Source of the DNA: Verrucomicrobia bacterium UBA1211
Lineage (GTDB): Bacteria > Verrucomicrobiota > Kiritimatiellia > RFP12 > UBA1067
NCBI GenBank assembly: GCA_002309585.1
Contig: DBXN01000140.1
Coordinates: 23,780 to 80,989 of the forward strand
DNA length: 57,210 bases
Direction of reading: 5' to 3'
Part shown: positions 4,627-46,618 of the stretch, piece by piece
Layout of the letters: each line of letters opens with the position of its first letter
Numbering within the stretch: the stretch's first letter is position 1
Notes under the pieces: model-generated
Seen by the model: the letters and a program-made list of their open reading frames with translations, nothing else
Databases searched by the model: none
Told to the model about the DNA's origin: nothing
Program-made: the position numbers and the translations under genes

Positions 4627-7626
4627 TTACCGGGAAAGCTCCATTTTGATCTGGTCGAGGAATCCCGGATCCGACTCGATGTTTTTTCCGGAGGTTGCGC
4701 TGTCCAGCAGAAACTGCTGGATGAATGTGGCGGTGTCGACCGAGACGTTTCCGCTTTTCACGGTGATGGGAATCATGAGCGACTGGGAGCGGTAAATGTC
4801 GTCTTTGATGAAAAGCTTCGGAATCATCTTCCTCAAATTCGGTCCCATTTCCAATTCGACATCCTTCATGTACAGATTGAGTTTCGCGTTCAGCTGCCGT
4901 TCGGGCGGCTGATGCAGATCCGCTTCCAGCTGATGGACATCAAGGGAGATATTGCCCCGCTTGATCTTGCAGCCGGCGAAAAGCGGGGTCACATTTGCCA
5001 GAACCTGATCGAGCATCGGCTGGGTCAGGTTCACGCGGTCCAGCACGCGTGTCCGCTCCGGAAGCTTGAAGAGCGTGGTGTCGGCGGTTCGGCTGAGGGT
5101 CGGCGCAAGATTCAATTTGCCGTTGTTGAGTTGCGGCGTGTAGGAGAGGGCGAGGTTTCCCTTCTCCAATGTGCAGGCGATCTCCGATGCGCCCGCGTAG
5201 AGGCCGAACCCTTCCGCCGATTGAAGATGGACACTTCCTTTTCCCTTTCCGTTCAACAGAAAGGTGTCCAGCCCGCATCCGAGCGGCGCCTGGAGCTGAA
5301 TCTTCCGTTTGGTCCGGCCGGAGAGGAAGAAGCCGTTGATCGCCTGGGTATTCAACAGCCGGGTGATGGCGGTGAAGTCTGGGGCCCAGGTTCCGGCGAT
5401 GTTCACCAGACAGGTGTTGAACGGATCGGCGATCTGTCCCGAAAGTTCACATTCGCCCAAGACGCCCCGATAGGCGAATGTTTTCAACGGGAAGGCCTTG
5501 CCGTCTGGAGGGATGTCTATTGTCAGCCGTGCCCACCCCTTTTTCTCGGTGAAGACCTTGACCTCGCTTCGCGAGAAACTGCCGATGCCCGAGAAGATCG
5601 TATCGGTCCGAAGAAGATCGTTCCCCGCCGTGCCTTGGGATAGCCGGCTTTCAAACCGGAGATCGGGGATGGACCAGACGCCATTGACGGTCGGAATGGT
5701 GACGGTCTGGAGCAGTCCGTTGAACAATGCCTTGGCTTGGCCGCCGGAGATCTCGGCGGTGCCGTTCAACAGCAGGTCACCTTGCGCGGTCAGTAACCGT
5801 TTCCGGGTTTCGGGTGCGAGCGCGCCGCCCAGAAGATTCGCCCATTCCGCGACGGGGACCTTGGTGTTGATCTTGAAACCCCGGAGCAGGGTCAGGACGG
5901 ATGCGTCGTCCCACGCCAACCGTTGCCAGCCGCCGCTGAGAATCCCGGAGGGAACTTTCAATTCAAACGCCCCTTCGTTGAATTCGCGTTTCAGGGCACC
6001 GTTCGCTTGGAACGGCGTGGAGCCTTTCAATGTGAGCGATCCTTGCGGGATCGACAGTTGCCGGTCAGGCGCGGGGGTGACGGTGAAGGCCTTCGCTTTC
6101 ATCAAAACGGCGAGGTTCATCCGTTCGCCCTGCCGTTGTGTCCCGGCATGGAGGAAGAGACTCCCCGACAAAGCGGGTGAGTTGGGGAAGAGGGTGTGGT
6201 AATCCGTGTGAAACCGTCCAAGGTCCATATTGCCCGTGACGGTCAGGGCGTCAAGGGGACCTTTCCCGGAAAGTTCTGCGAAGGCACTTTTGAACGAAAA
6301 GGCAGAGACTTCGGGAAGATGGCTTTTGTCATGCGGGATAGACGCCCTGAAGGTCATGACCGGTTGCTGACGAGGTACGACACGCCCCGCGGGTGAACTC
6401 CAGGCGAGCGCGTCGGCGACCGCCTTGACGTTAACGGAACAGGTCTCGTCATCCGACACGAGATCCCCCTGGAGATCGATTGCCCCCGACTCAACGTTGA
6501 GTGTGGCGGGGATGTCCCATACCGCGCCGAAATCTTTGATGAGTTCCGGCAGCTTGAGTGTGGCGCGCCCGCCCAGTTTCCCGGTACGGTTGAACCCGGT
6601 GTCGTTTTTCGTCAAGGCGCCCTCCAGCCGGACCGCGAGCCAGGGCGATTCAAGGGTCAGGGGTGAGAAACGGATCGCTTGGGCATCGATTGAGAAATCG
6701 GCGTTGAGATCGACCGTGGCGGGAGGAGAGGGTTGGTGATCTCCCGTCTGAACCGAGAAACGGGTCAGCGTTAGGGTACTCTTCCCCGAACAGTCGTTCG
6801 TGCCGCTCATACGCAGGTTGAAGTCGCCGTGGGCGAGGCCTTCCATCCGCATTGGCACACCCGCGAAGGGTTCAACAAAGGGACGGAGGGCCGAGGCGTC
6901 AACCTGTTTGAGCGAGAATGCGAGCGTCTGTTCCGTTTCCGAGTCGGGGTTCTCTTCAGCGAAGTCCTTCAGACTTTTCAGATCGCCCTCGGCGGAGAGT
7001 TGGCCGCCGCCCGCCTGCGCCGTTCCCCGGAAATGGAAGGGCTTCCAGAACGAGGGCATATCGATGGAGGCGTTCAGGTGGGTGAAGGGGATGGCTTGCT
7101 GGCCATCCGTCGCGCGGGACCAGATGAGGGTGCCGTCCTCAATCGTTCCGCGTCCGGCGAGGTCCGCGACCGGAAGGATAAGCCCATCGCCGGATTCCGC
7201 CGCAAGGGCATCCGGGTCGGGAAAGGCGATGACACATTCGGGACGGGTCAACTGGAGATGGCCGAGGTTGAGGCGGCCGATCGGAAAGACCTGGAAGAAG
7301 AAACGGTCGGAGGTCAGCTTCGGGCAGGTGATCCGGATGCCGTCTCGGGGAAGGGCCAGGGCCGCATCCTTTATCTCCAACGGCGTGAACCATCCGACCT
7401 CCAGCGAGGAACAGGTGAACGTCGAAGGGGCGATCCGCTTGTTGACATAGGCGAGAATCTTCTGCCGTCCACTCGCGGAGGTGAACGCTTTCGGTAACAG
7501 GGCAAAGGCAATCGCCAAGGGAATAAGCAGGGCCAGCAAGATTTTGACGGTTGTGCCGAAACACCCCGTCCGTTTCCGCAGATCCTGTTCCTCGTCATCG
7601 TCTGGGGCAATACGGTCAAAGTCCAT
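4627..7626 (-). CDS. Large envelope protein with N-terminal membrane anchor, AsmA/TamB-like (tentative)
   Basis: This is the 3' two-thirds of the 1501 aa ORF-track entry 4627..9132. The part above 7626 is antisense to argG. MDFDRIAP...TTVKILLALLIPLAIAFALL gives one TM anchor followed by ~950 aa of beta-rich, low-complexity-free sequence. Alternative start at 7692. Confidence 0.45.
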   Translation of the reverse strand: MDFDRIAPDDDEEQDLRKRTGCFGTTVKILLALLIPLAIAFALLPKAFTSASGRQKILAYVNKRIAPSTFTCSSLEVGWFTPLEIKDAALALPRDGIRITCPKLTSDRFFFQVFPIGRLNLGHLQLTRPECVIAFPDPDALAAESGDGLILPVADLAGRGTIEDGTLIWSRATDGQQAIPFTHLNASIDMPSFWKPFHFRGTAQAGGGQLSAEGDLKSLKDFAEENPDSETEQTLAFSLKQVDASALRPFVEPFAGVPMRMEGLAHGDFNLRMSGTNDCSGKSTLTLTRFSVQTGDHQPSPPATVDLNADFSIDAQAIRFSPLTLESPWLAVRLEGALTKNDTGFNRTGKLGGRATLKLPELIKDFGAVWDIPATLNVESGAIDLQGDLVSDDETCSVNVKAVADALAWSSPAGRVVPRQQPVMTFRASIPHDKSHLPEVSAFSFKSAFAELSGKGPLDALTVTGNMDLGRFHTDYHTLFPNSPALSGSLFLHAGTQRQGERMNLAVLMKAKAFTVTPAPDRQLSIPQGSLTLKGSTPFQANGALKREFNEGAFELKVPSGILSGGWQRLAWDDASVLTLLRGFKINTKVPVAEWANLLGGALAPETRKRLLTAQGDLLLNGTAEISGGQAKALFNGLLQTVTIPTVNGVWSIPDLRFESRLSQGTAGNDLLRTDTIFSGIGSFSRSEVKVFTEKKGWARLTIDIPPDGKAFPLKTFAYRGVLGECELSGQIADPFNTCLVNIAGTWAPDFTAITRLLNTQAINGFFLSGRTKRKIQLQAPLGCGLDTFLLNGKGKGSVHLQSAEGFGLYAGASEIACTLEKGNLALSYTPQLNNGKLNLAPTLSRTADTTLFKLPERTRVLDRVNLTQPMLDQVLANVTPLFAGCKIKRGNISLDVHQLEADLHQPPERQLNAKLNLYMKDVELEMGPNLRKMIPKLFIKDDIYRSQSLMIPITVKSGNVSVDTATFIQQFLLDSATSGKNIESDPGFLDQIKMELSR

Positions 7627-7788
7627 GTCCCATATTATCGCATAATCGCACGGCGTGAACCAAGTAAAAGTTTTCCGTTCCGGGCATATCATCAACCGCC
7701 GAACCGTTCCTTCCAACTTTCCATTGATTTTCTCCCCTAAAAAGCGTACCTTATCGTGGATTTTCCATTCAATCAAGGAGAGAAGAAT

Positions 7789-9030
7789 ATGGCATTGACA
7801 TTGGCTGATTTGAAGGGCAAAACCGCAGGCGTGTGCGTTTCGGGCGGATTGGATAGCCGGACGATCTCGAAAGTCCTGGTTGAGGCGGGCGTGAACGTGA
7901 TCGCCTTTTCCGCGGATGTGGGCCAGCCGGATGAGAAGGATATCAACGACATCCGGAAGCGGATGGCGCCGTGCGGCGTGGATACCGTGATCGTCGATCT
8001 GAAGGAAGAGATGGCGAAGGCCTGTTTTGAGGCGATCGAAGCCCAGGCGATGTATGATGGTGGGTATTGGAACTCGACCGGCATCGCGCGTGCCGTGACG
8101 GTCCGTGGGTTGATCCCGGAGATGAAGAAGCGGAAGTGCACGGTCCTCATCCACGGCGCGACCGGCCGCGGCAATGACCAGATGCGTTTCGAGCGTTACA
8201 CCAATGTCCTCGCGCCCTCCATGCGGGTTTACTCCCCCTGGCGTGACGCCGAGCTCCTGAAGCGTTTTCCCGGCCGGACCCAGATGGTCGAATTCCTCGC
8301 CAAGTACGGAATCAAGGCGTTTGTCGGCACGAAGAAAAAGTATTCGACCGACAGTAACCTCGCCGGTCTCTCGCACGAGGCGGAGGATCTGGAGAGCATG
8401 GAGACCTCGATGCTGATCGTCAAGCCGACGATGGGTGTCTGGCCGCAGGAGGCTCCGGATAAGGTTGAGAAATTCACGGTCCGGTTTGAGAAGGCCCGTG
8501 CCGTTCAGATCAACGGCAAGGATGTGACCCCGCTGGAGGCGATGTTGCTGGCGAACAAGATTGGCGGCCGGAACGGTATCGGCATGAAGCACGCCCTTGA
8601 GAACCGGATCATCGGGACCAAGAGCCGCGGCGTGTATGAGGCGCCGGGCATGGAAGTGTTGGCGACCGCTCTCCGTTACCTCTATCAGGCGACGATGGAC
8701 CGCCGCGCGACCCTGCTCTTCATGCAGCTCTCGAAGCTGGTGGCCGACCAGATCTATGACGGCCGTTATTACGATCCCGCCACGCAGGCTGCGCGCGCCG
8801 CGATCGGTGTCTTCGCGAAGCACGCCACCGGTACGGTCGAGGTTGGCCTTTACAAAGGCAACATCTTCTTCAACGCGCTCTCCGGATGCAAGGCCACCAT
8901 CTACAATGAGGCCGACTCCTCGATGGAGGCCAGCAACGGACTGAATCCCGTCAGCTCGCAGGGCTTCGCGGAGATTCAGAGTGTTGAGGCGCTGATGTTG
9001 GCGAAGGCCGGTCAGATCGTTTCGAAATAG
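7789..9030 (+). CDS. argG: Argininosuccinate synthase
   Basis: GVCVSGGLDSRT (ATP PPi-loop) and HGATGRGNDQMRFE are classic ArgG motifs. AGGAG precedes the ATG at 7789. Confidence 0.9.
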   Translation: MALTLADLKGKTAGVCVSGGLDSRTISKVLVEAGVNVIAFSADVGQPDEKDINDIRKRMAPCGVDTVIVDLKEEMAKACFEAIEAQAMYDGGYWNSTGIARAVTVRGLIPEMKKRKCTVLIHGATGRGNDQMRFERYTNVLAPSMRVYSPWRDAELLKRFPGRTQMVEFLAKYGIKAFVGTKKKYSTDSNLAGLSHEAEDLESMETSMLIVKPTMGVWPQEAPDKVEKFTVRFEKARAVQINGKDVTPLEAMLLANKIGGRNGIGMKHALENRIIGTKSRGVYEAPGMEVLATALRYLYQATMDRRATLLFMQLSKLVADQIYDGRYYDPATQAARAAIGVFAKHATGTVEVGLYKGNIFFNALSGCKATIYNEADSSMEASNGLNPVSSQGFAEIQSVEALMLAKAGQIVSK

Positions 9031-9113
9031 GCAACGGGAAACTGGGATGCGGAGGCGAAATGGATTCGGAAAGTCCGATTGCCTTCGCTCCTGATCAACG
9101 AACGGAGTGCCAC

Positions 9114-10109
9114 ATGGCCAATATTGAGACACGGTATTTGGGACTTCATCTGAAAAACCCCCTGATCGCCAGTTCCGGTCCGCTCACCCGCCAGCCGGGT
9201 AGCGTGGCGATGCTGGAGGATGCCGGCATCGCCGCCGTGGTGCTTCGTTCGATTTTCGAAGAACAGATCACCGCCGAGACCTCCTCCATGTACGCCGCGC
9301 TGGAGAACGAGACCAGCGCGTTCGCGTTGGAGTATCTGCGGGCTGACCTGCCCGGCCAGCTGGGGCCGGAAGAGTACTTGCGCCGGCTGGACGCGATCCG
9401 CAAACGGGTGAAGATCCCCGTCATTGCCAGCTGTAACTGCCTGTCGAAGGCGAAGTGGATCGCCTATGCCCGCAAGATCGCGCAGACCGGTGCCGACGCG
9501 CTGGAGCTCAACCTCTACCACATGCCCGTCGATCCGGAAGAAACCTCTGAACAGATCGAGGCGCGCAATGTGGATCTGGTCCGTGCGGTGATCAATGAGG
9601 TGAAGATCCCGATCGCCGTCAAGCTCAGCTACCACTATACCGCCTTGCCCGCTTATGTCAGGAAACTCGACCGGGCGGGGGTGAAGGGCGTTGTCCTGTT
9701 CAATCGGTTTCTCCAAACCGATGTCGATATCAACCGGGAGCGGATCTTCTACGCACCCAACTACTCCTCGCCCAATGTCCTGCACTCCCAACTCCGCTGG
9801 GCCGCCGTCCTCCGTAACTTCATCCATGCCGATATCGGCATCAGTGGGGGAATCCATTCGGGCGACGATCTGGTCAAGGCGTTGCTGGTAGGCGCGAATG
9901 TGGGCATGATCTGTTCCGTCCTGCATCTTCACCCTGATGCCTCCCGCACGATCAACCAGATTCTCACCCGGTTGCAGGAGTGGATGGTGGACAAGGGATA
10001 TGCGGATCTCGATGCTTTCCGTGGGAAACTCCGCGAGACCAACCTGCATGACGGGAGGGGATTTGAGCGCGCCCAGTATGTGAAGGCCGCGACCGAACTC
10101 TTCACCTGA
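9114..10109 (+). CDS. Dihydroorotate dehydrogenase-like TIM-barrel flavoprotein
   Basis: YLGLHLKNPLIASSGPLT at the N-terminus and GISGGIHSGDDLVKALLVGA near the C-terminus match the DHOD/PyrD-like family. The exact activity is not assignable. Confidence 0.6.
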   Translation: MANIETRYLGLHLKNPLIASSGPLTRQPGSVAMLEDAGIAAVVLRSIFEEQITAETSSMYAALENETSAFALEYLRADLPGQLGPEEYLRRLDAIRKRVKIPVIASCNCLSKAKWIAYARKIAQTGADALELNLYHMPVDPEETSEQIEARNVDLVRAVINEVKIPIAVKLSYHYTALPAYVRKLDRAGVKGVVLFNRFLQTDVDINRERIFYAPNYSSPNVLHSQLRWAAVLRNFIHADIGISGGIHSGDDLVKALLVGANVGMICSVLHLHPDASRTINQILTRLQEWMVDKGYADLDAFRGKLRETNLHDGRGFERAQYVKAATELFT

Positions 10110-12404: not shown

Positions 12405-13529
12405 ATGCCGCGTATTTCGTTTGAGGGGAATTTGGGTGTGACGAGAAGGGGATTTGTCGGTCTTTTGGCGGCGTCGGTGTCGCTGTGCGCGGGCCATCCG
12501 CTTTGGGCCGAGACGCCCGACGCGAAGAAGGCGGAGCTGTTGAAGTGGTTTTTGGACAACGAATATGGCCATGCGCCGTTAGAGCGTCCGCAGGATATGG
12601 CCTTCGAGGGTAACAGCATCCTTTTCGGCGGGGGCAAGATGAAGGTGAATCTGACGGTGGCTCTCCCGAAAGGCGCGTCAAAGGAGAAACCCTGCCCCGT
12701 TCTCCTGATGGGCGACTTCCGGACCTGGAATAACGGGATGCGCGACGACGCGGGCTCCCTCAGGCAGAAGAAGCAGCAGGATGACATCGACGCCTGCGCA
12801 ACGGAGCGAGGCTATGCGGTGGTCCACTACGACCTCAACGAGGCCGCGCCCGACCAGCCGCGCCGCAAATATCTGGAGGCGCTGAAGAAGGCGGGCAAGC
12901 CCTTGCCCCCCTACGCCTACGGTCTTTTCGACGTGTATGGCGGCGAGGCGGATCGGACGGATACGAGCTGGGGAACGATCCGCGCGTGGGCCTGGTGCCA
13001 CAGCCGCGTGTTGGACTGGATCGAGACGCAACCGGCGCTTGACGCCAAGCGCGTCGCGGTGCTCGGTCACTCCCGCCTCGGCAAGACCGCGCTCTGCGCC
13101 GGGGTGACGGATGCCCGTTTCAAGGTGGTCTACTCCAACGCCTCCGGCTGCGGCGGCGCGAAACTGAACCGCATGGATTTGCCCAAGAGCGAACATATCC
13201 ACCAGATCACGAACGGTTTCCCGTACTGGTTCTGCCGGGCGTTCAATCAGTGGCGGAACCGTGATCGGGAAATCCCTCACGATCAGGATGAGTGGATGGG
13301 GCTGATCGCGTCACCCACGCGCTACCTCTATGTGGCGAGCGGTTCGGCGGACCACTGGGCCGGTCCCGCGGGCGAGAAGGCTGCGGCTGAGGGCGCGGCG
13401 AAGGCGTGGGAGGCTCTTGGTCTCAAGGGCATGGGGGACCATGTGGGCTACCACTGCCACGAGGGCCCGCACGATCTGGGTGTCCGGGACATCAACCTCT
13501 TCCTCGATTTCTGCGACAAGAGATTGTGA
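12405..13529 (+). CDS. Secreted alpha/beta-hydrolase, CE15 glucuronoyl-esterase-like
   Basis: Tat-like signal TRRGFVGLLAA. FLDNEYGHAP N-terminal motif and the nucleophile elbow GHSRLGKTAL resemble the CE15 GCSRxGK motif. Confidence 0.5.
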   Translation: MPRISFEGNLGVTRRGFVGLLAASVSLCAGHPLWAETPDAKKAELLKWFLDNEYGHAPLERPQDMAFEGNSILFGGGKMKVNLTVALPKGASKEKPCPVLLMGDFRTWNNGMRDDAGSLRQKKQQDDIDACATERGYAVVHYDLNEAAPDQPRRKYLEALKKAGKPLPPYAYGLFDVYGGEADRTDTSWGTIRAWAWCHSRVLDWIETQPALDAKRVAVLGHSRLGKTALCAGVTDARFKVVYSNASGCGGAKLNRMDLPKSEHIHQITNGFPYWFCRAFNQWRNRDREIPHDQDEWMGLIASPTRYLYVASGSADHWAGPAGEKAAAEGAAKAWEALGLKGMGDHVGYHCHEGPHDLGVRDINLFLDFCDKRL

Positions 13530-13660
13530 GAAGAGGGGAACGGGGAAGAGGGAATAGGGAAGAGAAACGAGACGAACGGCGGGGTGAAATTTCATAATGG
13601 CATAATGCCATAATTTCACAATTCCAGAATGGAAACGCTCAACGCTCAACCCGCAACTGC
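13530..13660 (+). repeat. Modular intergenic element: GGGGAAC heptamers, palindromic GTGAAATTTCATAATGGCAT/AATGCCATAATTTCAC core, CTCAACG heptamers
   Basis: Shares the core and the terminal CTCAACGCTCAAC with the elements at 18.5, 23.6 and 50.1 kb. Confidence 0.75.
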
Positions 13661-13721
13661 CCCCGCCCCCCGTTATTCTCATTTACTTTCCCGCGCTCAC
13701 GCGGGCGGGGGCCGGGGGCTC

Positions 13722-14885
13722 TTAATCTTCAATGAGTGCGGGGTAGATCCAGGCCGTGACGGCGGCGCACTCAATCCCGAAGGGCAGGTAGCCGGCGAAT
13801 CCGAGGATCGGCATCTCCCAGATCTGGAAGGCGTGGACATAGGGGACGGCATAGATCCACTTGGCGAGGCTGTGCCAGTTCCACGTCTCCCACGCCAGTC
13901 CGCAGATCAGGGCGGCAAAGGCGAACCGGACGAAGATGCGCCAGTCGCCGAGGGCGACCGTGTCCGCCACGCTCTTTTCCTTCAGGACGATCTGCACGAC
14001 CAGGAAGAGGCAGAGCGGGGAGATCCAGAGGAGCGGGTAGGTGAATTGCGGGAAGAAGACGATGCCCGTCAGACCGACCATCGCCAACAGGAAGATCGCG
14101 GCCGCGATCCACGATCTGCGGATGTCGATGCGGGCCATGCCGCACTGTCGGCGGTCAGAGAAGGCGGGGAAGGTGTGCAGCCACGCCGCGACCGCGCAGA
14201 CTGCGGGAAGCACCGATGAGAAACTGCAGGTGGCGAAGAGGGTGTATTCGCCCGCGCTCATCTCCTGCACTCCTTGGTAGTACCAGTTCCAGACGAAACG
14301 GTTGAGGTATTCGAAGAACCACCAGAAGACCGAGCTGACGGGGAAAGTCAGGAGATAGGGGAGGGTGTGGCGGGTGAGCGGCGATGAGCCCGAACGCCGG
14401 ACGCACAGACCGTTCATCAGAAGGATGAAACCCGCCCAGAGGATCAGGTAGGTGTGGCGCTGCCCTTTGGCGAACCACGGGAAGCGGTTCCAAGCGAGGA
14501 TCCAGCCGCCCAGACAGAGGATCAACCCGATCCAGCCGAAGAGGGGGAACGGATGCGGGCGCTGCTTTTCCGGTGCGGGATCGGTCGATCCCACGGGCGG
14601 GAAAAACGCCCGTTTGATGAAGGGGAAGACCACCAGAAGGATAAAGCCGAGCATTACCAGGAAGACCGGCCACGAGAAGGGGCAGCGCATGTTCCAAAGC
14701 CGTTCGGGGATGGCTCCCCAATCCTCCGTGCGCGGCGGAAAGGCCTTGACGCCCGCCAGAACCGCCTCGCGTCCGCTTACGGCGGCGCAGAACCACGGGA
14801 CGCCGAAAAGAAAGACCGCCAAGAACAGATAGTGCACGATTCGTTTCATCACACAGGATGTCTTCACCTTCTTCATGGCGGACAT
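13722..14885 (-). CDS. Polytopic integral membrane protein of unknown function
   Basis: Trp/Phe-rich ORF of 387 aa with about 10 hydrophobic segments. Codon usage is consistent with neighbours. I recognise no family. Confidence 0.5.
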   Translation of the reverse strand: MSAMKKVKTSCVMKRIVHYLFLAVFLFGVPWFCAAVSGREAVLAGVKAFPPRTEDWGAIPERLWNMRCPFSWPVFLVMLGFILLVVFPFIKRAFFPPVGSTDPAPEKQRPHPFPLFGWIGLILCLGGWILAWNRFPWFAKGQRHTYLILWAGFILLMNGLCVRRSGSSPLTRHTLPYLLTFPVSSVFWWFFEYLNRFVWNWYYQGVQEMSAGEYTLFATCSFSSVLPAVCAVAAWLHTFPAFSDRRQCGMARIDIRRSWIAAAIFLLAMVGLTGIVFFPQFTYPLLWISPLCLFLVVQIVLKEKSVADTVALGDWRIFVRFAFAALICGLAWETWNWHSLAKWIYAVPYVHAFQIWEMPILGFAGYLPFGIECAAVTAWIYPALIED

Positions 14886-16930: not shown

Positions 16931-18421
16931 ATGAGAATGAATCGGATGATCGGTTTGGTCGCGGCGGTGGCCGCGTTACAGATGTCGGTCTGCCTGACGG
17001 CGGAAGCGGCACAGACCTTCTCATGGGACAAAAACAACTGGGTGGCGTTTGACGATACCGTCACCGCCACCGTGGAGTGTCCCGACCCTGCGGCGGCGGA
17101 GTGGGTGAAGACCCATTTCGCAGAGTGGTACGGTGCGCATGCCCCGAACGTGACGGGCGGAACGACCGGACTTGCCCTTCAGGCGGGGGACGAGGCGTAT
17201 GCCGCGGAGGTGAACGCGGATGGCGTGAAGATCCATGCGCGCACCTTGGCGGGCGCGCGGTGGGCCACCTACACGCTGCGACAGATCGCGATCGCGAAGC
17301 GCGGCACCTTCAAGACGGAAGGGATGCTTCTTCCGACGATGAAAATCTCCGACGCGCCGCATCTTCCGTTCCGCGCTATCCATTTCTGCTGGTTCCCCGA
17401 GGTCCGGCCTCAGCAGATCGAACGCGCCATCCGCCTCGCGGCGCTGATGAAGTTCAACTACGCGATCATCGAGCCGTGGGGAATGTACAAGAGCGAGAAG
17501 CACCCCTGGTGGCCCTGGCCGCAGGCGAACATGACCAAGGCGGAGGTCAGCCGCCTCGTTGCCATCGGTAAGGATATCGGTATCACCCTCATCCCGCAGA
17601 TCAACTGCTATGGCCACGCCTCTTCCTCGCGGGGCTGCACGATCAAGCACAGCGCGCTCGACATCCATCCCGAATACGAACCGCTTTTCGAGCCGGGGGG
17701 ATGGAATTGGTGTCTCTCGAATCCGGAGACGCAGCGCGTTCTGCGCGAGTTGATCGCCGAAATGCACGAGAACTTCGGCAATCCCCCTTACTTCCACATC
17801 GGGTGTGACGAGGCGGAGCGGCAGAGCTGTCCCGAGTGCGTCAAGACGCCGAACGGCGAATTGGTGCTGAAGCACATCACGGGGTTGGCGGAGTTCGTCA
17901 AGTCGCGCGGGGCGCGCGCGATGATGTGGCACGACATGCTGCTTGACCGGGCGGATTTCCGCTGGAAGGGTTTTACCGTATGCGGCAACAAGGAGACGGG
18001 GGCGATTCTTGACAAACTCCCCAAGGACATCATCATCTGCGACTGGCAGTATCAGGACACCGCGCAGCATGAGAAAGGCGCGCTGACTGATTGGCCCACG
18101 ATGACCTATTTCAAGGAACAGGGGTTTTCGGTCGCCTGTTGCCCGTGGATGAACGACAAGTCGATGAAACCGATGGCGGACCACATCGTCAAGATCGGCG
18201 GATTCGGGTTCATCGAGACGACGTGGCATCATCTGCGCGGTTCCGAATGGCAGAAGATGTACATGGGGGCCGCCTATGCCGCATGGGGATCGCCCGTCTC
18301 GCACGATGTTTCCTTCCAGCGTTCGCTGCGCCTTGTCGGACAGGACATGAAGGTGACCGACTACCTCGACACCGGCTTCCTGAACTATCAGGTCTCTCCC
18401 GGTTGGTGGGTGAACAACTGA
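16931..18421 (+). CDS. GH20-like beta-N-acetylhexosaminidase
   Basis: Sec signal. TIM-barrel start FRAIHFCWF and catalytic-region FHIGCDEAE (GH20 D-E pair). Confidence 0.65.
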   Translation: MRMNRMIGLVAAVAALQMSVCLTAEAAQTFSWDKNNWVAFDDTVTATVECPDPAAAEWVKTHFAEWYGAHAPNVTGGTTGLALQAGDEAYAAEVNADGVKIHARTLAGARWATYTLRQIAIAKRGTFKTEGMLLPTMKISDAPHLPFRAIHFCWFPEVRPQQIERAIRLAALMKFNYAIIEPWGMYKSEKHPWWPWPQANMTKAEVSRLVAIGKDIGITLIPQINCYGHASSSRGCTIKHSALDIHPEYEPLFEPGGWNWCLSNPETQRVLRELIAEMHENFGNPPYFHIGCDEAERQSCPECVKTPNGELVLKHITGLAEFVKSRGARAMMWHDMLLDRADFRWKGFTVCGNKETGAILDKLPKDIIICDWQYQDTAQHEKGALTDWPTMTYFKEQGFSVACCPWMNDKSMKPMADHIVKIGGFGFIETTWHHLRGSEWQKMYMGAAYAAWGSPVSHDVSFQRSLRLVGQDMKVTDYLDTGFLNYQVSPGWWVNN

Positions 18422-18600
18422 GGTAAGGGAATGAGTGACGAGTGACGGTTAATGAGTGACGGGTGACGAGAGCGAATGAAGAACGGGGGATTATGGCATT
18501 ATGGCAATGTGGCATTATGGCATTATGAAAATGTGGCGGAGTGAAATTCCATAATGGCTTAATGTCATAATTCCAGAATGAAACCTCAACGCTCAACGAT
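18422..18600 (+). repeat. Modular intergenic element, copy A: GTGACGR heptamers (18428-18490), WTRTGGCA octamers (18491-18586), CTCAACG units
   Basis: Its ~150 nt core is >90% identical by eye to 23505-23664. Confidence 0.85.
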
Positions 18601-18659
18601 TCAAGGGTGACGATATGGTGACGAAAGACAACACGGGATTACGGTCTCGGACTGATGTG

Positions 18660-19706
18660 ATGAAGATGGACAGGCGGGGATTTCTTGCCGGAATCGCCGC
18701 GGTGGGGGTGGTGGGTGCCATCCGGGCCGGGGCGGAGACCCCGGTGGGGGAGCCGCGCCCGCTCAAGGTTTGCGTTTTCTCGGACATCCATTATGAACGC
18801 AACCAATGGACGAACACGGAGAACACATCCTTTCTCGAACGCATCATGGCGCGCGCGGAACGCGAGCGGTGTGATATGATGATCCACTGCGGTGACTTCA
18901 TGCATGGTGTCCGAAAGGATTGGCAGAAGGAGTATCTCAAGCTGTATGGCAGCTCCGCGATTCCCGGTTACCACATTCTCGGCAACCATGACCAGGACCA
19001 GAACGACTATCGCGAGACGTGCGAGGCCTACCGAATGCCTGCCGGCCACTACTCGTTCGACAAGGGCGGTTTTCGGTTCGTGATCGCCGATCCCAACTAT
19101 ATCCGATTGGCAGACGGTAAGTTCGTCCATTACGGGAACGGCAACTATTTCAAGCCCGGCGAGGGCGCGTCGACGACATGGATTCCCCCTGAGGAGATGG
19201 AGTGGCTTCGGGCGACCATCGTCGGCTCGCCGCTTCCCTGCGTTGTCCTTTCACACCAGAGCTTTGAACGGGGACGGTGCGATCCGGTGAAAAACGCCGC
19301 CGAGGTGCGCGCGATCTTCAGCGAGGCGAACGCGAAACGGTCCGGGACCGTCCGGCTCGTGATGAATGGGCATCTTCACACCGACCATCTCCGTATTCTC
19401 GACGGCATCCTCTATTGGGATGTCAACAGCGCCAATTACCAGTGGTACGGCAAGGTTCACGACAAATATCCCGCCGACTATGTGGCGAACCATCGCGGCG
19501 CGCCGCATACCCTTGGATGGACCGCTCCGCTCTCCGGAATCCTTTCCCTTTGGCCGAATGGCCGCATCCGGATCGAAGGATCAAAGGCCGGGTGGCTGTT
19601 CGGGGTGACACCCAAAGATGCGGGGTATCCGCTCTGCGACAGCGACGGGCGCGAGACCTATCCGGCCATCCAGACCGCAGACGTTTCCTTCAACCTGCCG
19701 TCCTGA
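18660..19706 (+). CDS. Tat-exported calcineurin-like metallophosphoesterase
   Basis: MKMDRRGFLAGIAAVG signal. VFSDIHYE, CGDFMH, GNHD, NGHLH metallophosphatase motifs. Start trimmed from 18615. Confidence 0.75.
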   Translation: MKMDRRGFLAGIAAVGVVGAIRAGAETPVGEPRPLKVCVFSDIHYERNQWTNTENTSFLERIMARAERERCDMMIHCGDFMHGVRKDWQKEYLKLYGSSAIPGYHILGNHDQDQNDYRETCEAYRMPAGHYSFDKGGFRFVIADPNYIRLADGKFVHYGNGNYFKPGEGASTTWIPPEEMEWLRATIVGSPLPCVVLSHQSFERGRCDPVKNAAEVRAIFSEANAKRSGTVRLVMNGHLHTDHLRILDGILYWDVNSANYQWYGKVHDKYPADYVANHRGAPHTLGWTAPLSGILSLWPNGRIRIEGSKAGWLFGVTPKDAGYPLCDSDGRETYPAIQTADVSFNLPS

Positions 19707-20040: not shown

Positions 20041-21369
20041 ATGAATAGGGTGATGGGGATCTTGGGCGCATCGGCACTGTGCGTATGTGTCGGGAGTGGG
20101 GAAACCGCCGTGAAACCGCCGGCCGAGCGGATGGACCGCTCGAAACTGCTCATCGGTGCGTACTGTCTGCAGGCCAACGCCCGGACCGATGCGCATATCC
20201 AGGCGATCCGCGACTGCGGGGTGGACTTCATTATCGGTGTTCCGGCTGACGACCGCGCCACCCTCGACCAGTTCGCCAAATACGGAGTCGGGGCGATCGT
20301 GAACGGCGTCGTCCCCAGCTGGTGGGGCGGCGACGGCGAGCGCGCGGGAAAGATGCGGGAGGTGAACCCACCTGATCGATACGCGGCGGGGGCCAAGGCC
20401 TTCAAAGACCACCCCGCAGTCTGGGCGGTGGATATCGGCGACGAACCTTCCGCGCTCGATTTTCCCTACTACGGCGAGGTTGTGCGGCAGTTGAACAAGG
20501 CTCTTCCCGGTATGCCGCTCTATCTAAACCTCTATCCCAACTACGCGAGTGTGGCGCAGAATACGGGGAAGCAGACCGTCAACCAGCTCGGCACGCCGAC
20601 CTATACCGAACACATCGCGGCCTACTGTCGCGATGTCCCGCTCGACTACATCTCTTATGACTTTTATCCCTACGTCGGCCCTGCCGGGATCGATCGGTTC
20701 CTCTCGAAGATGTACGACAACTTCCTCGATGTCTCTGGGGCGTGCCGTCGCACCAAGCGTGCCTTCTGGTACATTCCGCAGGTGAACACCCGCGAGAATT
20801 TGCCCTCCACCAGCGAAAACTGTCTGCGTTTCCAGGCGTATGCGGCGATGAGTTTCGGAGCGGAGGTGATCACCTGGGCCTGTTGGTGCAAGGGGTGGTG
20901 GACCGACAACGTCCTTGATGCGGAGGGGAAGCAGACGGGACAGTACGCGAAGCTCCAGCGGGTCAACGCCGAACTGAAGCGGCTCGGTCCCGCGTACATG
21001 GCGTTCAGGAACGTCGCCACTCACTTTGTCGGATTCCCTGAGACCTCACCCCGGAATCCCACGCTCCCGTTTACCCGTACCGACGCGCTTGACGCTGGCG
21101 GATTCACGGCGCTTCGCGCCTCCAACGGCGCGGCGTTGTTAGTCGGGGAGATGGTCGCACGGGATCCGGAGGGCAAGGCCCGGGCGCTCTTTGTGACGGC
21201 GGCGGACGATCCGTGCGATGAGCGCCATGCCACGTTTGATATCGTTTTCCGCGCGAAAGCGGCGAAGACGTTCGGTGGACAGGGGCCTGTTCCTGTGCGG
21301 CGGCTTGACGACGGGCGATTCGCCGTCGCGATCGCCTCGTGCGCGGGGGTACTTCTGGTGGCGGAGTGA
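20041..21369 (+). CDS. Secreted putative TIM-barrel glycoside hydrolase, family uncertain
   Basis: Signal peptide. Alternating beta/alpha pattern with DIGDEPS and LNLYPNY, reminiscent of GH42/GH35-type barrels. Weak call. Confidence 0.35.
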   Translation: MNRVMGILGASALCVCVGSGETAVKPPAERMDRSKLLIGAYCLQANARTDAHIQAIRDCGVDFIIGVPADDRATLDQFAKYGVGAIVNGVVPSWWGGDGERAGKMREVNPPDRYAAGAKAFKDHPAVWAVDIGDEPSALDFPYYGEVVRQLNKALPGMPLYLNLYPNYASVAQNTGKQTVNQLGTPTYTEHIAAYCRDVPLDYISYDFYPYVGPAGIDRFLSKMYDNFLDVSGACRRTKRAFWYIPQVNTRENLPSTSENCLRFQAYAAMSFGAEVITWACWCKGWWTDNVLDAEGKQTGQYAKLQRVNAELKRLGPAYMAFRNVATHFVGFPETSPRNPTLPFTRTDALDAGGFTALRASNGAALLVGEMVARDPEGKARALFVTAADDPCDERHATFDIVFRAKAAKTFGGQGPVPVRRLDDGRFAVAIASCAGVLLVAE

Positions 21370-21422: not shown

Positions 21423-23495
21423 ATGAAAAAACAACTGTTGTCGATGGTGTTGGTTCTGATGGGCGGGCTTTGCATGGCCGCCGATGATGGTGTGTGGATG
21501 TGGTATCCCGGCGAGTATGGGATTTGGCGCGGGAACGCGCTGCAGTTCGAGCGGCTTCAGTGGGGGGCGGAGTTGCCGCCTTTCTGGCCGAGTTACGGAT
21601 TTTATCCCGTTGTCGAGTTTTCCGCGCAATTCGATCTGGCGGAGGCGGAACGGGTCGAGATGACGGCGGATGGCGGATTCACCGTGAATGTGAATGGCCG
21701 TGACTGTGTCGCCCCGCTCGGCCGTGTGGATGTGCCGAAAGGACGCGTCACGATCAAGGTGAAAGTCGGGAACAACCTCCGGCCACCCGCGCTGCTCGTC
21801 AAGGGTAAGACCGTCAAGAGCGGTGAGGCGTGGAAGGTCGGATGGTATCCGGACGATCCGGCGGCATTGCCCGTCGAGTTCGACCGGGCGTTCGCCGATG
21901 CCGGGAACAAGCCGGGCGATTGGAAGCTGCGGCGCGAGCCTGCCGTGCCGGTTCAGATCCGGAAGCTTGACGGAGGGGCATTGCTCGCCGACTTCGGCCG
22001 GGAGACCTACGGGTACTTGGTCTTGACGGACATCAAAGGCGAGGGCGCGGTCAAGATCATCTATGCCGAGAGCGAGAAGGAGGCGCTGGATGAGGCACCC
22101 GCGCGTCCGCAGGACTGTATGGAGTTCGTCTCCTTGGGCGCGAAGGATGCGCCGAAATGCGTGTGGAAAAAGGGACGGGGTTTCCGTTACGTGTTTCTGC
22201 GTCCGTTCGAGGGAAATCTCTCCATAGGCGGCATCGCGATGGAGCGGGAGTTGCCGCGCGCCTCCAGACGCGGGGCGTTCCGGTGCAATGACGAGCGGGT
22301 GAACGCGATTTGGGATGTCGCCGCCGATACGCTGGAGTTGACCTGCCGGGAGGTCTTCATCGAGGGCGTGAAGCGTGACCATTGGGTCTGGAGCGGCGAC
22401 GCGGTTCAGAGTTTCCTGATGAACTACTATCTTTCGGGTGACTACGAGGGGTGCCGTGACACGCTCTGGTGCGTTCGCGGCAAGGATCCCGTGGTGAAAC
22501 ACCTGAACGGCATCATGGACTACTCCTTCCTTTGGTTCGACGCGGTGGCGACCTACGTGCTCTATTCCGGCGATCAGCGGTTTCTGCAACAGGCGAAGCC
22601 GCGCATGGACTCCCTGATGCGTTGGTGTCAGTCACGTCTCGATGCGAAGGGGCGTCCGGTGAACCAGCCGGGTGATTGGATCTTCATCGACTGGGCGCCC
22701 GAAGCCCTGCACAACGCGGGTGGGGTGTGCGCCTTCGAGATGATGGTCTACGCGCGGGCACTGGAGACGATGGTGATGACGGAGCCGCCTGAACAGAACT
22801 TCACCCTCGCTTCGGTGGCCCAAAAGGTCAAATCCGAGGTCAAAACCCTTTTCTGGAGTGAGGAGAACGGCTGTCTCATGCACCTGTTCAAGAATGACGG
22901 GACGCTTGATCCGCAGGTAACGCGTTATCCGAACATCTTCGGGCTCAAGTGGGGCTACTTCAACGACAGCGAGCGGGAGCGGGTTCTGAAGGGTGTGATG
23001 TTCAACGACAAGGTGATGAAGATCCAGACGCCCTACATGCGGTTTTACGAATTGGAGGCGTTGTGCGCGCTCGGGATGCAGAAGCAGGTTCTGGGCGAGA
23101 TCAGGGATTACTGGGGCGGAATGCTCGATCTGGGGGCGACGAGTTTCTGGGAACTCTACAATCCCGCCGAGAGCGGCGACCAGCACTATGCCATGTACGG
23201 CCGGCCTTACGGGAAGAGCCTCTGCCATGCGTGGGGTGCCTCGCCGATCTATCTGTTGGGACGGTACTTCCTCGGCGTGGAGCCGACCGAACCGGGATTC
23301 GCCGCCTACACGGTCAAACCCGTTCTCGGCGGGCTTGAATGGATGACGGGCAAGGTCCCGACACCCACGGGCGATATCGAGGTTACGGTCAAAGACGGCG
23401 CTGTCACGGTCAAAGGCAACGGCGGAAAGGGCAAGCTGGTGTGGAACGGCAAGAGCGTCCCCATTCCGGTCAATGAGACCGTTATGGTAGAGTGA
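21423..23495 (+). CDS. Six-hairpin glycosidase, GH78 alpha-L-rhamnosidase-like
   Basis: Signal peptide. C-terminal region FWELYNP...SLCHAWGASPIYLLGRYFLGVEPTEPGF is typical of the rhamnosidase (alpha/alpha)6 catalytic plus C-terminal domains. Confidence 0.5.
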   Translation: MKKQLLSMVLVLMGGLCMAADDGVWMWYPGEYGIWRGNALQFERLQWGAELPPFWPSYGFYPVVEFSAQFDLAEAERVEMTADGGFTVNVNGRDCVAPLGRVDVPKGRVTIKVKVGNNLRPPALLVKGKTVKSGEAWKVGWYPDDPAALPVEFDRAFADAGNKPGDWKLRREPAVPVQIRKLDGGALLADFGRETYGYLVLTDIKGEGAVKIIYAESEKEALDEAPARPQDCMEFVSLGAKDAPKCVWKKGRGFRYVFLRPFEGNLSIGGIAMERELPRASRRGAFRCNDERVNAIWDVAADTLELTCREVFIEGVKRDHWVWSGDAVQSFLMNYYLSGDYEGCRDTLWCVRGKDPVVKHLNGIMDYSFLWFDAVATYVLYSGDQRFLQQAKPRMDSLMRWCQSRLDAKGRPVNQPGDWIFIDWAPEALHNAGGVCAFEMMVYARALETMVMTEPPEQNFTLASVAQKVKSEVKTLFWSEENGCLMHLFKNDGTLDPQVTRYPNIFGLKWGYFNDSERERVLKGVMFNDKVMKIQTPYMRFYELEALCALGMQKQVLGEIRDYWGGMLDLGATSFWELYNPAESGDQHYAMYGRPYGKSLCHAWGASPIYLLGRYFLGVEPTEPGFAAYTVKPVLGGLEWMTGKVPTPTGDIEVTVKDGAVTVKGNGGKGKLVWNGKSVPIPVNETVMVE

Positions 23496-23664
23496 CGAGT
23501 GACGGGTGACGGGTGACGAGAGTGAATGAAGAATGGGTGATTATGGCATTATGGAAATATGGCAATGTGGCATTATGGCATCATGAAAATGTGGCGGAGT
23601 GAAATTCCATAATGGCTTAATGTCATAATTTCAGAATGAAACCCTCAACCCTCAACACTCAACT
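23493..23664 (+). repeat. Modular intergenic element, copy B
   Basis: Same module order as copy A, with one extra 8-nt unit in the octamer array. It starts at the TGA of the preceding gene. Confidence 0.85.
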
Positions 23665-23676
23665 GAAAGGTGAGAC

Positions 23677-25863
23677 ATGGGGAAGATGTTAGGCCTGATG
23701 AGCGTTGTTTGCGCGGTCTCTGTGCTGGCGGCGCGCGGTGCGGATGCGTCCGATGCGTTCGCGTTGCCGCGCGCGGCGTTCGGACGCTACTATCGGCAGA
23801 TCACGGGGAAGGATGCCCCTGCGGAAGCGGTCACCTTCGCGATCAACCCCGCCGTGTCGGAAAAGGGCAGGGATGCCTACCGTATCGTGTCGGGGGAGGT
23901 CGGCGTGACGATCACGGGTTCGAACCTGCGTAGCGTCTGGTACGGACTTTACGACCTGCTGGAACGGCGCGGCGGTTGCCGCTGGTTCTGGGACGGTGAC
24001 CGGGTTCCGAGGAAGGATGCGATCGATCTCTCCGGTCTGGATGTGCGGGAGGAGGCGCATTTCGAATATCGCGGGATCCGTTACTTCGCGCATCGCGGCC
24101 TGACCCGCTTCCAGGCGGAGCATTGGGGTCCGGAGGAGTGGCGCCGCGAGATCGACTGGATTCTCAAGCGGCGGCTCAACGTCTTCATGCTCCGCATCGG
24201 GCAGGATGACCTCTTTCAGCTCACCTTTCCGGACATTTGCGCCTATCCGGATCCCTCAAAGCCGCTTCCCGGAGCCGGGAAGGGATATGACGACCGTTCC
24301 CTGTTCTGGAGTCTTCAGTTTCGCGGGGAACTGCGCAAGCGGCTTCAGAAATACGCCTTTGAGCGCGGGTTGTTGATCCCGGAAGATTTCGGTACCATGT
24401 CACACTGGTACTCGCGTACGCCGGAGGATTTTCTCGATAAACAGCAGCCACCGTTTCTGCCGCAGGAGGTGAGCCACTACAGTGAACGCAACGGCCGTGT
24501 CTGGGATATCCGAGAAGATAAGTGGGCCGACGCGTACTGGAAGCTGACCAGGACCGCCGTTGCACAATACGGGACAGGTGCGCCCCCACCGCAGTTGCTG
24601 CATACTATCGGGCTCGGTGAACGCCGGTGCTATAAAGACCGCCAGCGGAATTTCGACCTGAAAATCAAAGCGCTCGACATGTTTCTCGCCCGTGCCCATC
24701 GCGATTATCCCGATTCCAAGGTGTTGATCGCCGGCTGGGATTTCTACAGCACCTGGAAGCCGGAAGAGGTCAAGGCGCTGCTGCCGCGCCTCGACCCGCA
24801 ACGGGATATCATCTGGGACTACGAGGCGGATGTGCCGTATGGCGGAAACCACTTTCTGAATTGGGGCCTTGTGGGCCAATTCCCGTACACCTACTCGATT
24901 TTCCTCGCCTATGAGAAGGCGCTTGATGCGCGGGCGAACTATCCGCTCATTGAGGAGCGGCAGAAGATGGTGCAGGATGACCCGTTCTGCAAGGGTTACA
25001 TTTTCTGGCCGGAATCCAGCCATACCGATACGCTTTGCCTCCGGTTCTTCACAGCCAACGCTTGGTCCGCGAAACCCGTGCCGCACGGTGATGTGCTGGC
25101 TGAGATGTGCGCGAGTCGCTACGGGGAACATGCCGCATTGATGAAGGCCGCATGGAAGGCAGCGCTTCCCGCGTCCTATCTCAGGGACTGGGGACAGAAC
25201 TATTCGCGGGCGGTGCTTTCCATCGGCAATGAGGTGAAAGATCATTCGGCGTTGATCGCGAAGTGGGTGAAACCTGTCGCCGAGGCGGAAGAGGTGTTTG
25301 GCTTGCTCGCTTATTCGCCGTGGGACGATGCGTTCATCCGCCGCGACGCGATCGATATCGCCCGTATGGCGCTGGATCGCCTGATCGCTCTGCGCATTTT
25401 TGAATTCAGCCGGGATTTCACCGCCTGGCGCCACGGGCAACGTGATGGCGGGGACTTGCCCGCGCGAACGGAGCGTATCGCGACCCTGTGCGACCGGATG
25501 GCCGATCTGCTCGCGCTCGATACGGACTATTCGCTCTGGGAGTCCTACCTGCGGCTCGATGCCGTGGAGAAAGTCCGCAATCCCGCGTTCACCAAGACGC
25601 TCTTTGAAAACGCCTCATGCGACTACTGCCGCAGCCACCAGTACGAGTTGGCGCGGCACTGGTACGCGCCCCATGTGCGGCGCGTTGCGGAGACGCTGGC
25701 AAAGGCGGTCGCCGCCGGTGATCGGAAGATGACCATTTCCGGTAATGCGGAGCGGGAACGGCTTGAACTCAAGGAGAAACCGCTGGAATCCCTGCGCCCG
25801 ACCCTTCCGCGGACGGAAGAGAGCTTCCGAAACGTTTTGCGCGGGATAACCGGTGGGCTGTGA
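23677..25863 (+). CDS. GH89-like alpha-N-acetylglucosaminidase (NAGLU family)
   Basis: Signal peptide. FEYRGIRYF...WGPEEWRREIDWILKRRLNVFMLRIGQD resembles the start of the NAGLU TIM-barrel, followed by a long helical C-terminal domain. Confidence 0.5.
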   Translation: MGKMLGLMSVVCAVSVLAARGADASDAFALPRAAFGRYYRQITGKDAPAEAVTFAINPAVSEKGRDAYRIVSGEVGVTITGSNLRSVWYGLYDLLERRGGCRWFWDGDRVPRKDAIDLSGLDVREEAHFEYRGIRYFAHRGLTRFQAEHWGPEEWRREIDWILKRRLNVFMLRIGQDDLFQLTFPDICAYPDPSKPLPGAGKGYDDRSLFWSLQFRGELRKRLQKYAFERGLLIPEDFGTMSHWYSRTPEDFLDKQQPPFLPQEVSHYSERNGRVWDIREDKWADAYWKLTRTAVAQYGTGAPPPQLLHTIGLGERRCYKDRQRNFDLKIKALDMFLARAHRDYPDSKVLIAGWDFYSTWKPEEVKALLPRLDPQRDIIWDYEADVPYGGNHFLNWGLVGQFPYTYSIFLAYEKALDARANYPLIEERQKMVQDDPFCKGYIFWPESSHTDTLCLRFFTANAWSAKPVPHGDVLAEMCASRYGEHAALMKAAWKAALPASYLRDWGQNYSRAVLSIGNEVKDHSALIAKWVKPVAEAEEVFGLLAYSPWDDAFIRRDAIDIARMALDRLIALRIFEFSRDFTAWRHGQRDGGDLPARTERIATLCDRMADLLALDTDYSLWESYLRLDAVEKVRNPAFTKTLFENASCDYCRSHQYELARHWYAPHVRRVAETLAKAVAAGDRKMTISGNAERERLELKEKPLESLRPTLPRTEESFRNVLRGITGGL

Positions 25864-31809: not shown

Positions 31810-31884
31810 GCAACGTTCCTCGGGGAACGGGGAAGAGGACTTGACGTTTCTTGATTTTAGGTCGCGATAAAAGGGGATGATACG

Positions 31885-40992: not shown

Positions 40993-41033
40993 AGGTGGGG
41001 GATGTGGATATGGACGGAGAGAGAGGAGAGAGA

Positions 41034-42034: not shown

Positions 42035-42050
42035 GGCGGGCGCGCATCGG

Positions 42051-46544: not shown

Positions 46545-46618
46545 CTTATCGGCACCAGTTTAAGATACTCTTTTCCATCATCAATTTTGAATACGAATCC
46601 GGTCAGGAGAATTACGGG

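Follow-up and report, generated by a model that had tools for sequence, protein, structure and literature searches.

Why should two unrelated hydrolase genes of a rumen bacterium be preceded by almost the same 170 nt of non-coding DNA? The question is raised by a stretch of 57,210 nt (hereafter the window) from Verrucomicrobia bacterium UBA1211 (GCA_002309585.1, contig DBXN01000140.1, positions 23,780–80,989 of the forward strand), an uncultured rumen Kiritimatiellae bacterium of a glycan-degrading lineage. One copy of the element (copy A) lies between a GH20-like gene upstream and a metallophosphoesterase gene downstream, the other (copy B) between a rhamnosidase-like gene and a GH89/NAGLU-like gene. 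An initial annotation had read the pair as a sign either of mobility, in the manner of a miniature inverted-repeat transposable element (MITE), or of a shared regulatory function. The element is probably a composite member of a lineage-specific, high-copy family of interspersed repeats, resembling both the repetitive extragenic palindromes (REPs) with their inverted doublets (REPINs) and bacterial interspersed mosaic elements (BIMEs), and the short tandemly repeated repetitive (STRR) sequences. There is no support for a dedicated regulator or switch of the metallophosphoesterase and GH89 genes.

The analysis used MAFFT, repeat finding, blastn, Tandem Repeats Finder (TRF) for tandem arrays, nhmmer with a profile of the core, minimum-free-energy (MFE) folding against dinucleotide shuffles, and Rfam.

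Anatomy of the element

By MAFFT, repeat finding and blastn, positions 18433–18597 (copy A) match 23490–23656/63 (copy B) from end to end. The two copies are 87–90% identical with gaps counted and about 95% identical at aligned positions (blastn E 1e-58 for locus against locus and 1.8e-46 in a separate run), which bears out the near-identity first seen by eye. They differ by a 1-nt indel, about seven substitutions and, as had been pointed out, chiefly by exactly one additional 8-nt unit in B (six units in 18490–18537, seven in 23540–23595). When 16931–19706 was compared with 21423–25863, all blastn matches beyond A and B had E values of at least 0.036. Because the genes flanking A and B are unrelated, a local segmental duplication that included coding sequence, which the initial annotation had named as counting against a regulatory reading, is excluded; the two loci share the element only.

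The element consists, in order, of (GAGTGAC)n, a spacer with GAATGAAGAA, (ATTATGGC)n, a core of about 40 nt, GTGAAATTYCATAATGGCWTAATGYCAKAAT, then CAGAATGAAAC and (CTCAACN)n. The core, too, has a period of 8 nt and is complementary, in inverted orientation, to the 8-mer array before it, because the unit holds the near-palindrome CATWATG; the 8-nt register runs uninterrupted over about 110 nt. The parts of the two full copies, and the two further copies found with the core, are as follows.

18433–18470 (+): copy A 5′ array, (GAGTGAC)~5, TRF period 7, starting 11 nt past the GH20 stop codon (18419–18421)
18471–18489 (+): copy A spacer, GAGCGAATGAAGAACGGGG, conserved in B and, by alignment, in variant forms in other genomic copies
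18490–18537 (+): copy A left arm, six units ATTATGGC/AATGTGGC, TRF period 8, 4.8–6 copies
18536–18584 (+): copy A core (right arm), GGCGGAGTGAAATTCCATAATGGCTTAATGTCATAATTCCAGAATGAAAC, nhmmer E 1.5e-17, the invariant block of the four-copy alignment
18585–18597 (+): copy A 3′ array, CTCAACG CTCAAC, followed only by the Shine-Dalgarno sequence AAGGG before ATG 18615
23490–23520 (+): copy B 5′ array, (GAGTGAC)4.4
23540–23595 (+): copy B left arm, seven 8-mer units
23594–23643 (+): copy B core (right arm), nhmmer E 1.6e-17
23644–23663 (+): copy B 3′ array, (CTCAACN)3
13543–13651 (+): copy C block, 109 nt, with a purine-array remainder, core 13578–13620, CAGAATGGAAAC and a CTCAAC array
50109–50192 (−): copy G, left-arm 8-mer array and core (50109–50164, nhmmer E 1.1e-14)

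The left arm of copy A is the inverted complement of the core units and pairs with 18550–18584 in the MFE fold. Among all modules of the repeat family the core is the most repeated. The spacer variants of other copies appear as loose-end consensuses, GAGAAATGAAGAATGATGGGTGATTATGGC, from metagenome contigs, and CTCAAC-type arrays also close the elements at 13638–13657, 23644–23663 and 31786–31815.

A and B each take up, in sense orientation, the whole space between the stop codon of the gene before and the Shine-Dalgarno sequence of the gene after, and the first GAGTGAC unit of copy B even provides the TGA stop (23493–23495) of the rhamnosidase-like gene. The CTCAAC array ends 17 nt before the start codon in A (ATG 18615) and 13 nt before it in B (ATG 23677), within the 10–25 nt first noted. 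The ATG at 18660, which had been preferred as the start of the metallophosphoesterase gene, is most likely not the start. A 15-residue N-terminal extension, MVTKDNTGLRSRTDVMKMDRRG, precedes the twin-arginine motif MKMDRRGFL, and it is kept in frame, as MKNSTGLR(C/Y)SADSMKIDRRG after an AAGGAGG Shine-Dalgarno sequence, in the two closest relatives, the metagenome-assembled genomes (MAGs) UBA1200 and RGIG3692 (loci L001 and L002; GH89 about 85% identical in amino acids); the start is therefore placed at ATG 18615.

A profile of the conserved block detected exactly four core copies in the window (A, B, C and G), all of them intergenic. The partial relatives suspected near 13575–13660 and 50110–50192 thus proved real, with core matches at 13572–13622 (copy C, nhmmer E 2.5e-14) and 50109–50164 (copy G). 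Copy C carries a singlet palindromic core, GTGAAATTTCATAATGGCATAATGCCATAATTTCAC (fold z −3.6), and lies 3′ of a gene, with a stop codon on one side and a terminator hairpin on the other, where no gene start follows. The core of copy G lies upstream of the minus-strand gene 49110–50033, its end 76 nt from the gene start; this copy has no significant fold and is present in contigs of samples X3 and X7. Three of the four copies (A, B and G) stand upstream of gene starts and C does not, a proportion that rests on four copies. Next to copy C, a GC-rich inverted repeat at 13659–13718 (GCCCCCGCCCCCCG...CGGGCGGGGGCCGGGGGC) lies between the convergent genes 12405–13529 and 13722–14885; it is likely a bidirectional terminator, and its depth in metagenomes is elevated about 3–15x.

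The inner part of A and B is predicted to fold into an imperfect hairpin of 90–100 nt that brings both ends of the element together. In the folding check that had been suggested, copy A was more stable than dinucleotide shuffles (−33 kcal/mol, z −3.9) and copy B less so (z −1.8). With four copies to compare, the one stem pair whose two bases both differ between A and B goes from G-C to U-U, a non-compensatory change.

Dispersal, strain variation and sister mosaics

The copy number of the element was estimated from contigs of four bovine or gut DNA metagenomes (X1, X2, X3 and X5) aligned to copy A. The unique flanks of copy A had a depth of about 15 in X1, where the GAGTGAC array reached about 10–16x and the spacer about 10–12x the flank depth. 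The left arm stood at 20–65x and the core at about 150x in X1 and X2, about 57x in X3 and 30–40x in X5, while other module types reached 3–15x. The left-arm depth was about 40% of the core depth, which suggests a mixture of doublets and singlets. The core was carried by 43–92 contigs per run, with many different sequences on either side; across dozens of contigs whose flanks are unrelated its sequence stays about 90% identical. There are thus roughly 10^2 copies per genome (tens to more than 100), an estimate only, as depth is summed over metagenome contigs to which related strains or species may add; the four cores in 57 kb, or about 70 per Mb, agree with this order. Units of the types CATAATG and ATTATGGC were found in non-coding sequence only, and a motif like the DNA uptake sequences was rejected on account of their absence from coding DNA. 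The Logan contig L079, from the same locus, breaks inside the core of copy B, as expected of a repeat.

A 32-mer pattern of the core had no match among the GTDB representative genomes, and a 22-mer pattern had 13 matches there, in unrelated taxa and judged due to chance. Among the matches listed for an 18-mer against metagenome contigs there were chance matches only, none extending beyond about 24 nt. The phage and plasmid collections gave no match to the element, and a spurious antisense open reading frame (ORF) peptide used as bait in the protein collection gave no candidate contigs. At the level of blastn and of the core profile, the element was absent from 78 related loci of the Planctomycetes-Verrucomicrobia-Chlamydiae (PVC) group; a longer profile gave weak matches to analogous elements in L001 (E 1e-4) and L003 (E 3e-4).

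Direct evidence of gain or loss came from copy C. In contigs of samples X10, X7, X4 and X6, position 13542 is joined straight to 13652, with 0–2 mismatches in the flanks and no letters in between, so that the 109-nt block is present or absent as a unit and is precisely missing in four independent samples. The joint 13542/13652 has no shared letters and no microhomology, and no target-site duplication (TSD) was found at copy C, where the flanks GGGGAACG and CGCAAC are not duplicated. In the empty allele the stop codon is followed by 20 nt and then by the GC-rich terminator hairpin. Smaller variants comprise a 7-nt unit variant at 31786 in X3 (in element D, described below), a 7-nt unit-number variant at 23640 in X4 (3′ array of copy B), and a length variant of about 15 nt at 23488–23504 in X10 and X7 (5′ array of copy B). 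The slippage proposed for the arrays is thus seen as whole-unit differences between strains at orthologous loci. A structural variant between strains, located at an array, is seen in one contig of X7. This contig runs from the end of the metallophosphoesterase gene (19708), with a single nucleotide A in between, directly into the GAGTGAC array of copy B (23489), lacks 3.78 kb (genes 20041–21369 and 21423–23495) and has its junction at a TGACG/GAGTGAC-like sequence.

In UBA1200 and RGIG3692 the region ahead of the GH89 ortholog is a plain spacer of 45 nt that lacks the element. The gap between their GH89 and metallophosphoesterase orthologs holds an analogous mosaic of about 200 nt in UBA1200 (L001 8167–8457) and an empty site in RGIG3692 (L002 8176–8268). 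This mosaic consists of ACGGTTGG arrays, a CGCAAAG module and AATTGGCA-type 8-mers, and is inserted within a GACGGTT array, with the same array sequence on both sides; a 20-mer from it is unique in the UBA1200 MAG. A 25-nt non-coding module of the same mosaic, CTATGCGNNCTTTGCGGCTAAAAAA, does not occur in the window. Exact matches to it are carried by several MAGs of Kiritimatiellia and by two of Planctomycetota, namely a Thermoguttaceae MAG and RUG11551 (loci L213 and L219–L225), where it usually follows its inverted (CGCAAAGTN)n array. Such sharing across phyla could be due to horizontal spread, a common mobile element or mis-binning.

Nearly all longer intergenic spacers of the window have the same build from other units, namely AAGGTTAA, GGGGAAC, AGTGGTC, TTGAGGG and CTCAACN. 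These mosaics begin at the stop codon of the upstream gene or within about 12 nt of it, and the order of their modules relative to that gene is constant in all six co-directional spacers. Mosaics also adjoin hisB, queA, ispG and a DUF4159 gene and are not a feature of glycan genes. One such sister mosaic is element D:

31651–31815 (+; also delimited as 31648–31818): element D, (TTGAGGG)n, AAGGTTAA, (GGGGAAC)n, (AGTGGTC)n, a unique hairpin and (CTCAACG)n

The end arrays of element D are inverted complements of one another (26-nt inverted end arrays), it folds into a rod (−82 kcal/mol, z −8.8), and its modules stand at 3–15x flank depth.

Tandem arrays of period 7 or 8 are in general confined to such places. 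All 22 TRF arrays of these periods in the window lie outside ORFs or at ORF edges, and related PVC loci totalling 840 kb have 82 of their 110 in the 11% of sequence outside ORFs, an enrichment of about 24-fold. The array units are specific to the lineage, with different units in each related one.

Some further properties of these arrays were observed. The (GGGGAAC)n-type arrays at 31698–31717, 48173–48238, 54870–54892 and 13530–13564 have at least four G-runs and are formally capable of forming G-quadruplexes; they reach about 15x flank depth in metagenomes and are of the same type as the GGGAATC/GGGGAYT heptamers (PMC4692102). Arrays are also read as the 3′ ends of ORFs, at 53723–53752 and, on the minus strand, at 49110–49165. 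The last 10–20 codons or so of ORFs 51497–53752 and 49110–50033 come from purine-rich arrays (...WGMGSGKGE and ...EREIGNREEGRVSSDH, each directly before the stop), and the stop codon of such ORFs falls within a GAGTGAC or AGTGATC unit. Among the units of first arrays GAGTGAC, TTGAGGG and AAGGTTAA contain a stop codon, and in five of seven spacers checked each of the three frames meets a stop no more than about 45 nt past the upstream stop.

Two observations concern genes elsewhere in the window. The same-strand run 38972–48154 encodes an AMP-binding enzyme, a GT2 protein, a thioesterase, an MMPL-like transporter, a ketosynthase, an ApeP-like dehydratase and a DUF4159 protein, and looks like an aryl-polyene or lipid-type biosynthetic cluster. 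The minus-strand ORF 4627–9132, of 1501 residues, has no Pfam match.

What the element may be and do

An imperfect palindrome of 20–40 nt able to form a stem-loop, as in REPs, is present in the core of copy C and in the invariant block of about 40 nt. High copy number with extragenic placement is indicated by four intergenic copies out of four and by the 30–150x core depth, itself a metagenome estimate. Inverted doublets forming a larger hairpin, as in REPINs, occur in A and B, where the 8-mer array pairs with the core, and head-to-tail intergenic arrays of 7–8 nt with lengths varying between relatives, as in STRR-type repeats, were found throughout. A strict MITE was rejected. End-against-end alignment gave no significant terminal inverted repeats (TIR) for A (p 0.90), B (p 0.13) or the indel unit of copy C (p 0.47), copy C lacks a TSD, and TIR-like ends are present in sister D only. 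The 9-nt direct repeat GGGTGACGA around copy A was likewise rejected as a TSD, having no counterpart at B, C or G and being merely another GTGAC unit. No transposase domain was found in any ORF of the 57-kb window. Of the MITE-like mobility first suggested, dispersal therefore holds, given the core depth, the presence or absence of copy C and the empty sites of relatives, and the strict MITE does not.

The nucleus stands alone (copy C) or faces an inverted (ATTATGGC)n array (A and B), a singlet and doublet layout like that of REPs and REPINs. Independent heptamer arrays (GAGTGAC, GGGGAAC-type and CTCAACN), dispersed at about 5–15x, flank this nucleus and make up a BIME-like mosaic. Whole blocks come and go without target duplication, and arrays lengthen or shorten by whole units, in keeping with replication slippage. 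Presumably the family spreads in trans, via some enzyme, template-switch or recombination route, and its copies would be tolerated where they are co-transcribed in sense with the flanking genes, an RNA rod then joining the stop codon to the ribosome-binding site. By analogy with REPs, the element may serve generically as a 3′-exonuclease barrier or processing site.

Several points weigh against this view of a REP-like repeat family. A GTAG/CTAC or CGTC/GACG tag beside the palindrome, as defined for REPs (Di Nocera 2013, PMC3733652), occurs in none of the four copies; lacking this tag, the hallmark of the large REP super-families, the element is filed as REP-like and not as a REP. The composites have neither TIR nor TSD. 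The ratio of core to flank depth varies from 30x to 150x between samples, and the depth may include related strains or species. Support from RNA is thin: a few low-depth contigs from four low-share RNA runs carried the core next to other sequences, a weak sign that some core copies are transcribed. Copies A, B and D fold 12–26 kcal/mol better in sense than in antisense. In a control of 82 co-directional spacers the same sense bias appeared without arrays (48/69, p 0.0003), A and B ranked at the 20th–24th percentile, and the bias tracked G+T content (r −0.78). As ordinary co-directional spacers behave alike, the non-specific sense-fold advantage was dropped as a sign of RNA-level selection. Finally, A and B appear fixed in all sampled strains, exactly before start codons, and could still exert a local effect on expression.

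A broader proposal goes further than the repeat family itself and is offered as speculation, with the odds clearly against it. Ruminant-gut PVC bacteria (Kiritimatiellae, possibly Thermoguttaceae) would carry undescribed mobile 'array-hairpin' mosaics of 7–9-nt units in a fixed 5′-to-3′ order with inverted complements, the blocks moving without TIR or TSD via an enzyme or template-switch route, some modules being exchanged between phyla, and the RNA rods insulating or coupling cistrons.

Among the rival explanations, a portable outward-facing promoter, like the Correia elements of Neisseria, with TGTCATAAT in the core as an extended −10, is unlikely. Copies A, B and G are placed in sense orientation upstream of gene starts, the extended −10-like sequence is indeed present, and the core, AT-rich in a genome of 60% GC, contains three CATAAT motifs, one with TG before it. 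But a sigma-70 scan (spacing of 16–18 nt, at least 9/12) found no −35/−10 pair in any copy, although the consensus of Kiritimatiellae may differ, and the RNA data are too sparse to reveal where transcripts begin. Copy C, moreover, is directed into a terminator with no gene behind it, for which reason a promoter or leader role cannot be general. A scan for intrinsic terminators (a GC-rich stem and a U-tract) found none in the elements, whose hairpins are AU-rich and followed by CCAGAAUGAAAC.

Equally doubtful is the idea that the arrays are binding sites, with one unit of 7–8 nt per domain of an S1, cold-shock or CsrA-type protein on RNA or of a nucleoid protein on DNA, forming a distributed regulatory or architectural system. 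The strict 8-nt periodicity over about 110 nt, through both hairpin arms, and the consistent module order in six of six co-directional spacers would suit it, and a proposal of this kind has been made for TAACTGA heptamers (PMC4679880). Against it, units differ between close lineages, so that the binder would need fast co-evolution.

Slippage in situ alone, with the likeness of A and B due to gene conversion between nearby sites and no mobility, is slightly less credible again. Unit numbers do vary between copies and strains, 7–8-nt arrays, their units specific to the lineage, are common throughout the related MAG loci, and polymerase slippage was proposed for the heptamer excess elsewhere (PMC4692102). 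Yet dozens of contigs, unrelated in their flanks, share a specific, non-trivial core of 40 nt at about 90% identity, and the 109-nt block of copy C, including non-repetitive sequence, comes and goes as a unit; slippage accounts for array length, not for dispersal.

The remaining rival, a dedicated cis-regulatory leader (riboswitch-like or a protein-binding RNA or DNA) co-regulating secreted glycan hydrolase genes, is highly improbable: A and B do end just before the starts of two such genes in one same-strand run, and the hairpin of A does exceed its shuffles in stability, but the core is too numerous for a small regulon and has many different flanks, copy C has no gene start downstream and is dispensable in four strains, the GH89 upstream regions of the nearest relatives lack the element, sister arrays lie beside hisB, queA and ispG, the stems of A and B differ by a whole unit, and there was no promoter match and no Rfam match at gathering score in the whole window (at E ≤ 1 only chance sub-threshold miRNA hairpin models, E 0.16–0.68), so that the shared control of glycan genes advanced in the initial annotation is not upheld.

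Comparison with known repeat families

The probable assignment to a REP-like family adds REP/BIME-like repeats to an uncultured, glycan-degrading rumen lineage in which none was found described. In practice, such mosaics interrupt short-read assemblies at operon junctions, can be taken for regulatory leaders, extend the ends of ORFs and mark structural variation at the level of strains. If the blocks are truly mobile without TIR or TSD, they would offer a tractable case for the study of repeat spread in PVC bacteria.

REPs, REPINs and BIMEs were described in Enterobacteria and Pseudomonas (Bertels & Rainey 2011, PMC3116915; Di Nocera 2013, PMC3733652). The present family shares with them a short imperfect-palindrome nucleus in about 10^2 copies that are extragenic only, the occurrence of singlets and inverted doublets with long hairpins, and the mosaics with other short motifs typical of BIMEs. 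Further common traits are a frequent position between co-directional genes, the lack of a TSD, lineage specificity and fast evolution. Copies A and B also sit as REPs do in operons, where REPs are exonuclease barriers, a role that by analogy may apply here. The core differs in having no GTAG/CGTC tag, in arms made of slipping tandem 8-nt units, and in its heptamer-array flanks.

Intergenic heptamers form a second group. GGGAATC/GGGGAYT heptamers of Xanthomonas and Nostoc are intergenic, near the end of the upstream ORF, and variable between close relatives (Rehm 2015, PMC4692102), and TAACTGA heptamers of Beggiatoaceae lie just upstream of start codons (MacGregor 2015, PMC4679880). Here, too, units of 7 nt form arrays of 2–10 copies that are strongly intergenic, near the 3′ end of the upstream ORF or near start codons, sometimes in inverted pairs, with lengths varying between close relatives and with no tie to a gene class. 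The STRR sequences of cyanobacteria are likewise intergenic heptamer tandem repeats. What sets the present arrays apart is that several unit types, including 8-mers, stand in a fixed order around a non-tandem core and are dispersed as a block.

Modular MITEs include the Correia/NEMIS elements of Neisseria and the pneumococcal BOX A-B(n)-C and RUP elements. They resemble the present element in being 100–200 nt long, non-coding, high-copy and intergenic, with a variable number of internal modules; known MITEs are co-transcribed and can affect mRNA processing, which by analogy might hold here. The difference lies in the A, B and C composites, which have no significant TIR and no TSD, sister D alone having TIR-like end arrays.

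A close parallel in build may be offered by Nostoc, in which small dispersed repeats (SDR) nested in tandem heptamers were reportedly described by Elhai in 2008. In both cases small conserved dispersed units lie in heptamer arrays, and insertions occur inside arrays, as is seen here on comparing L001 with L002. The phylum is another one, the sequences are unrelated, and the core is here about 40 nt long with an 8-nt periodicity. The element thus unites dispersed palindromic repeats and intergenic heptamer/octamer tandem arrays, two groups that are usually treated apart.

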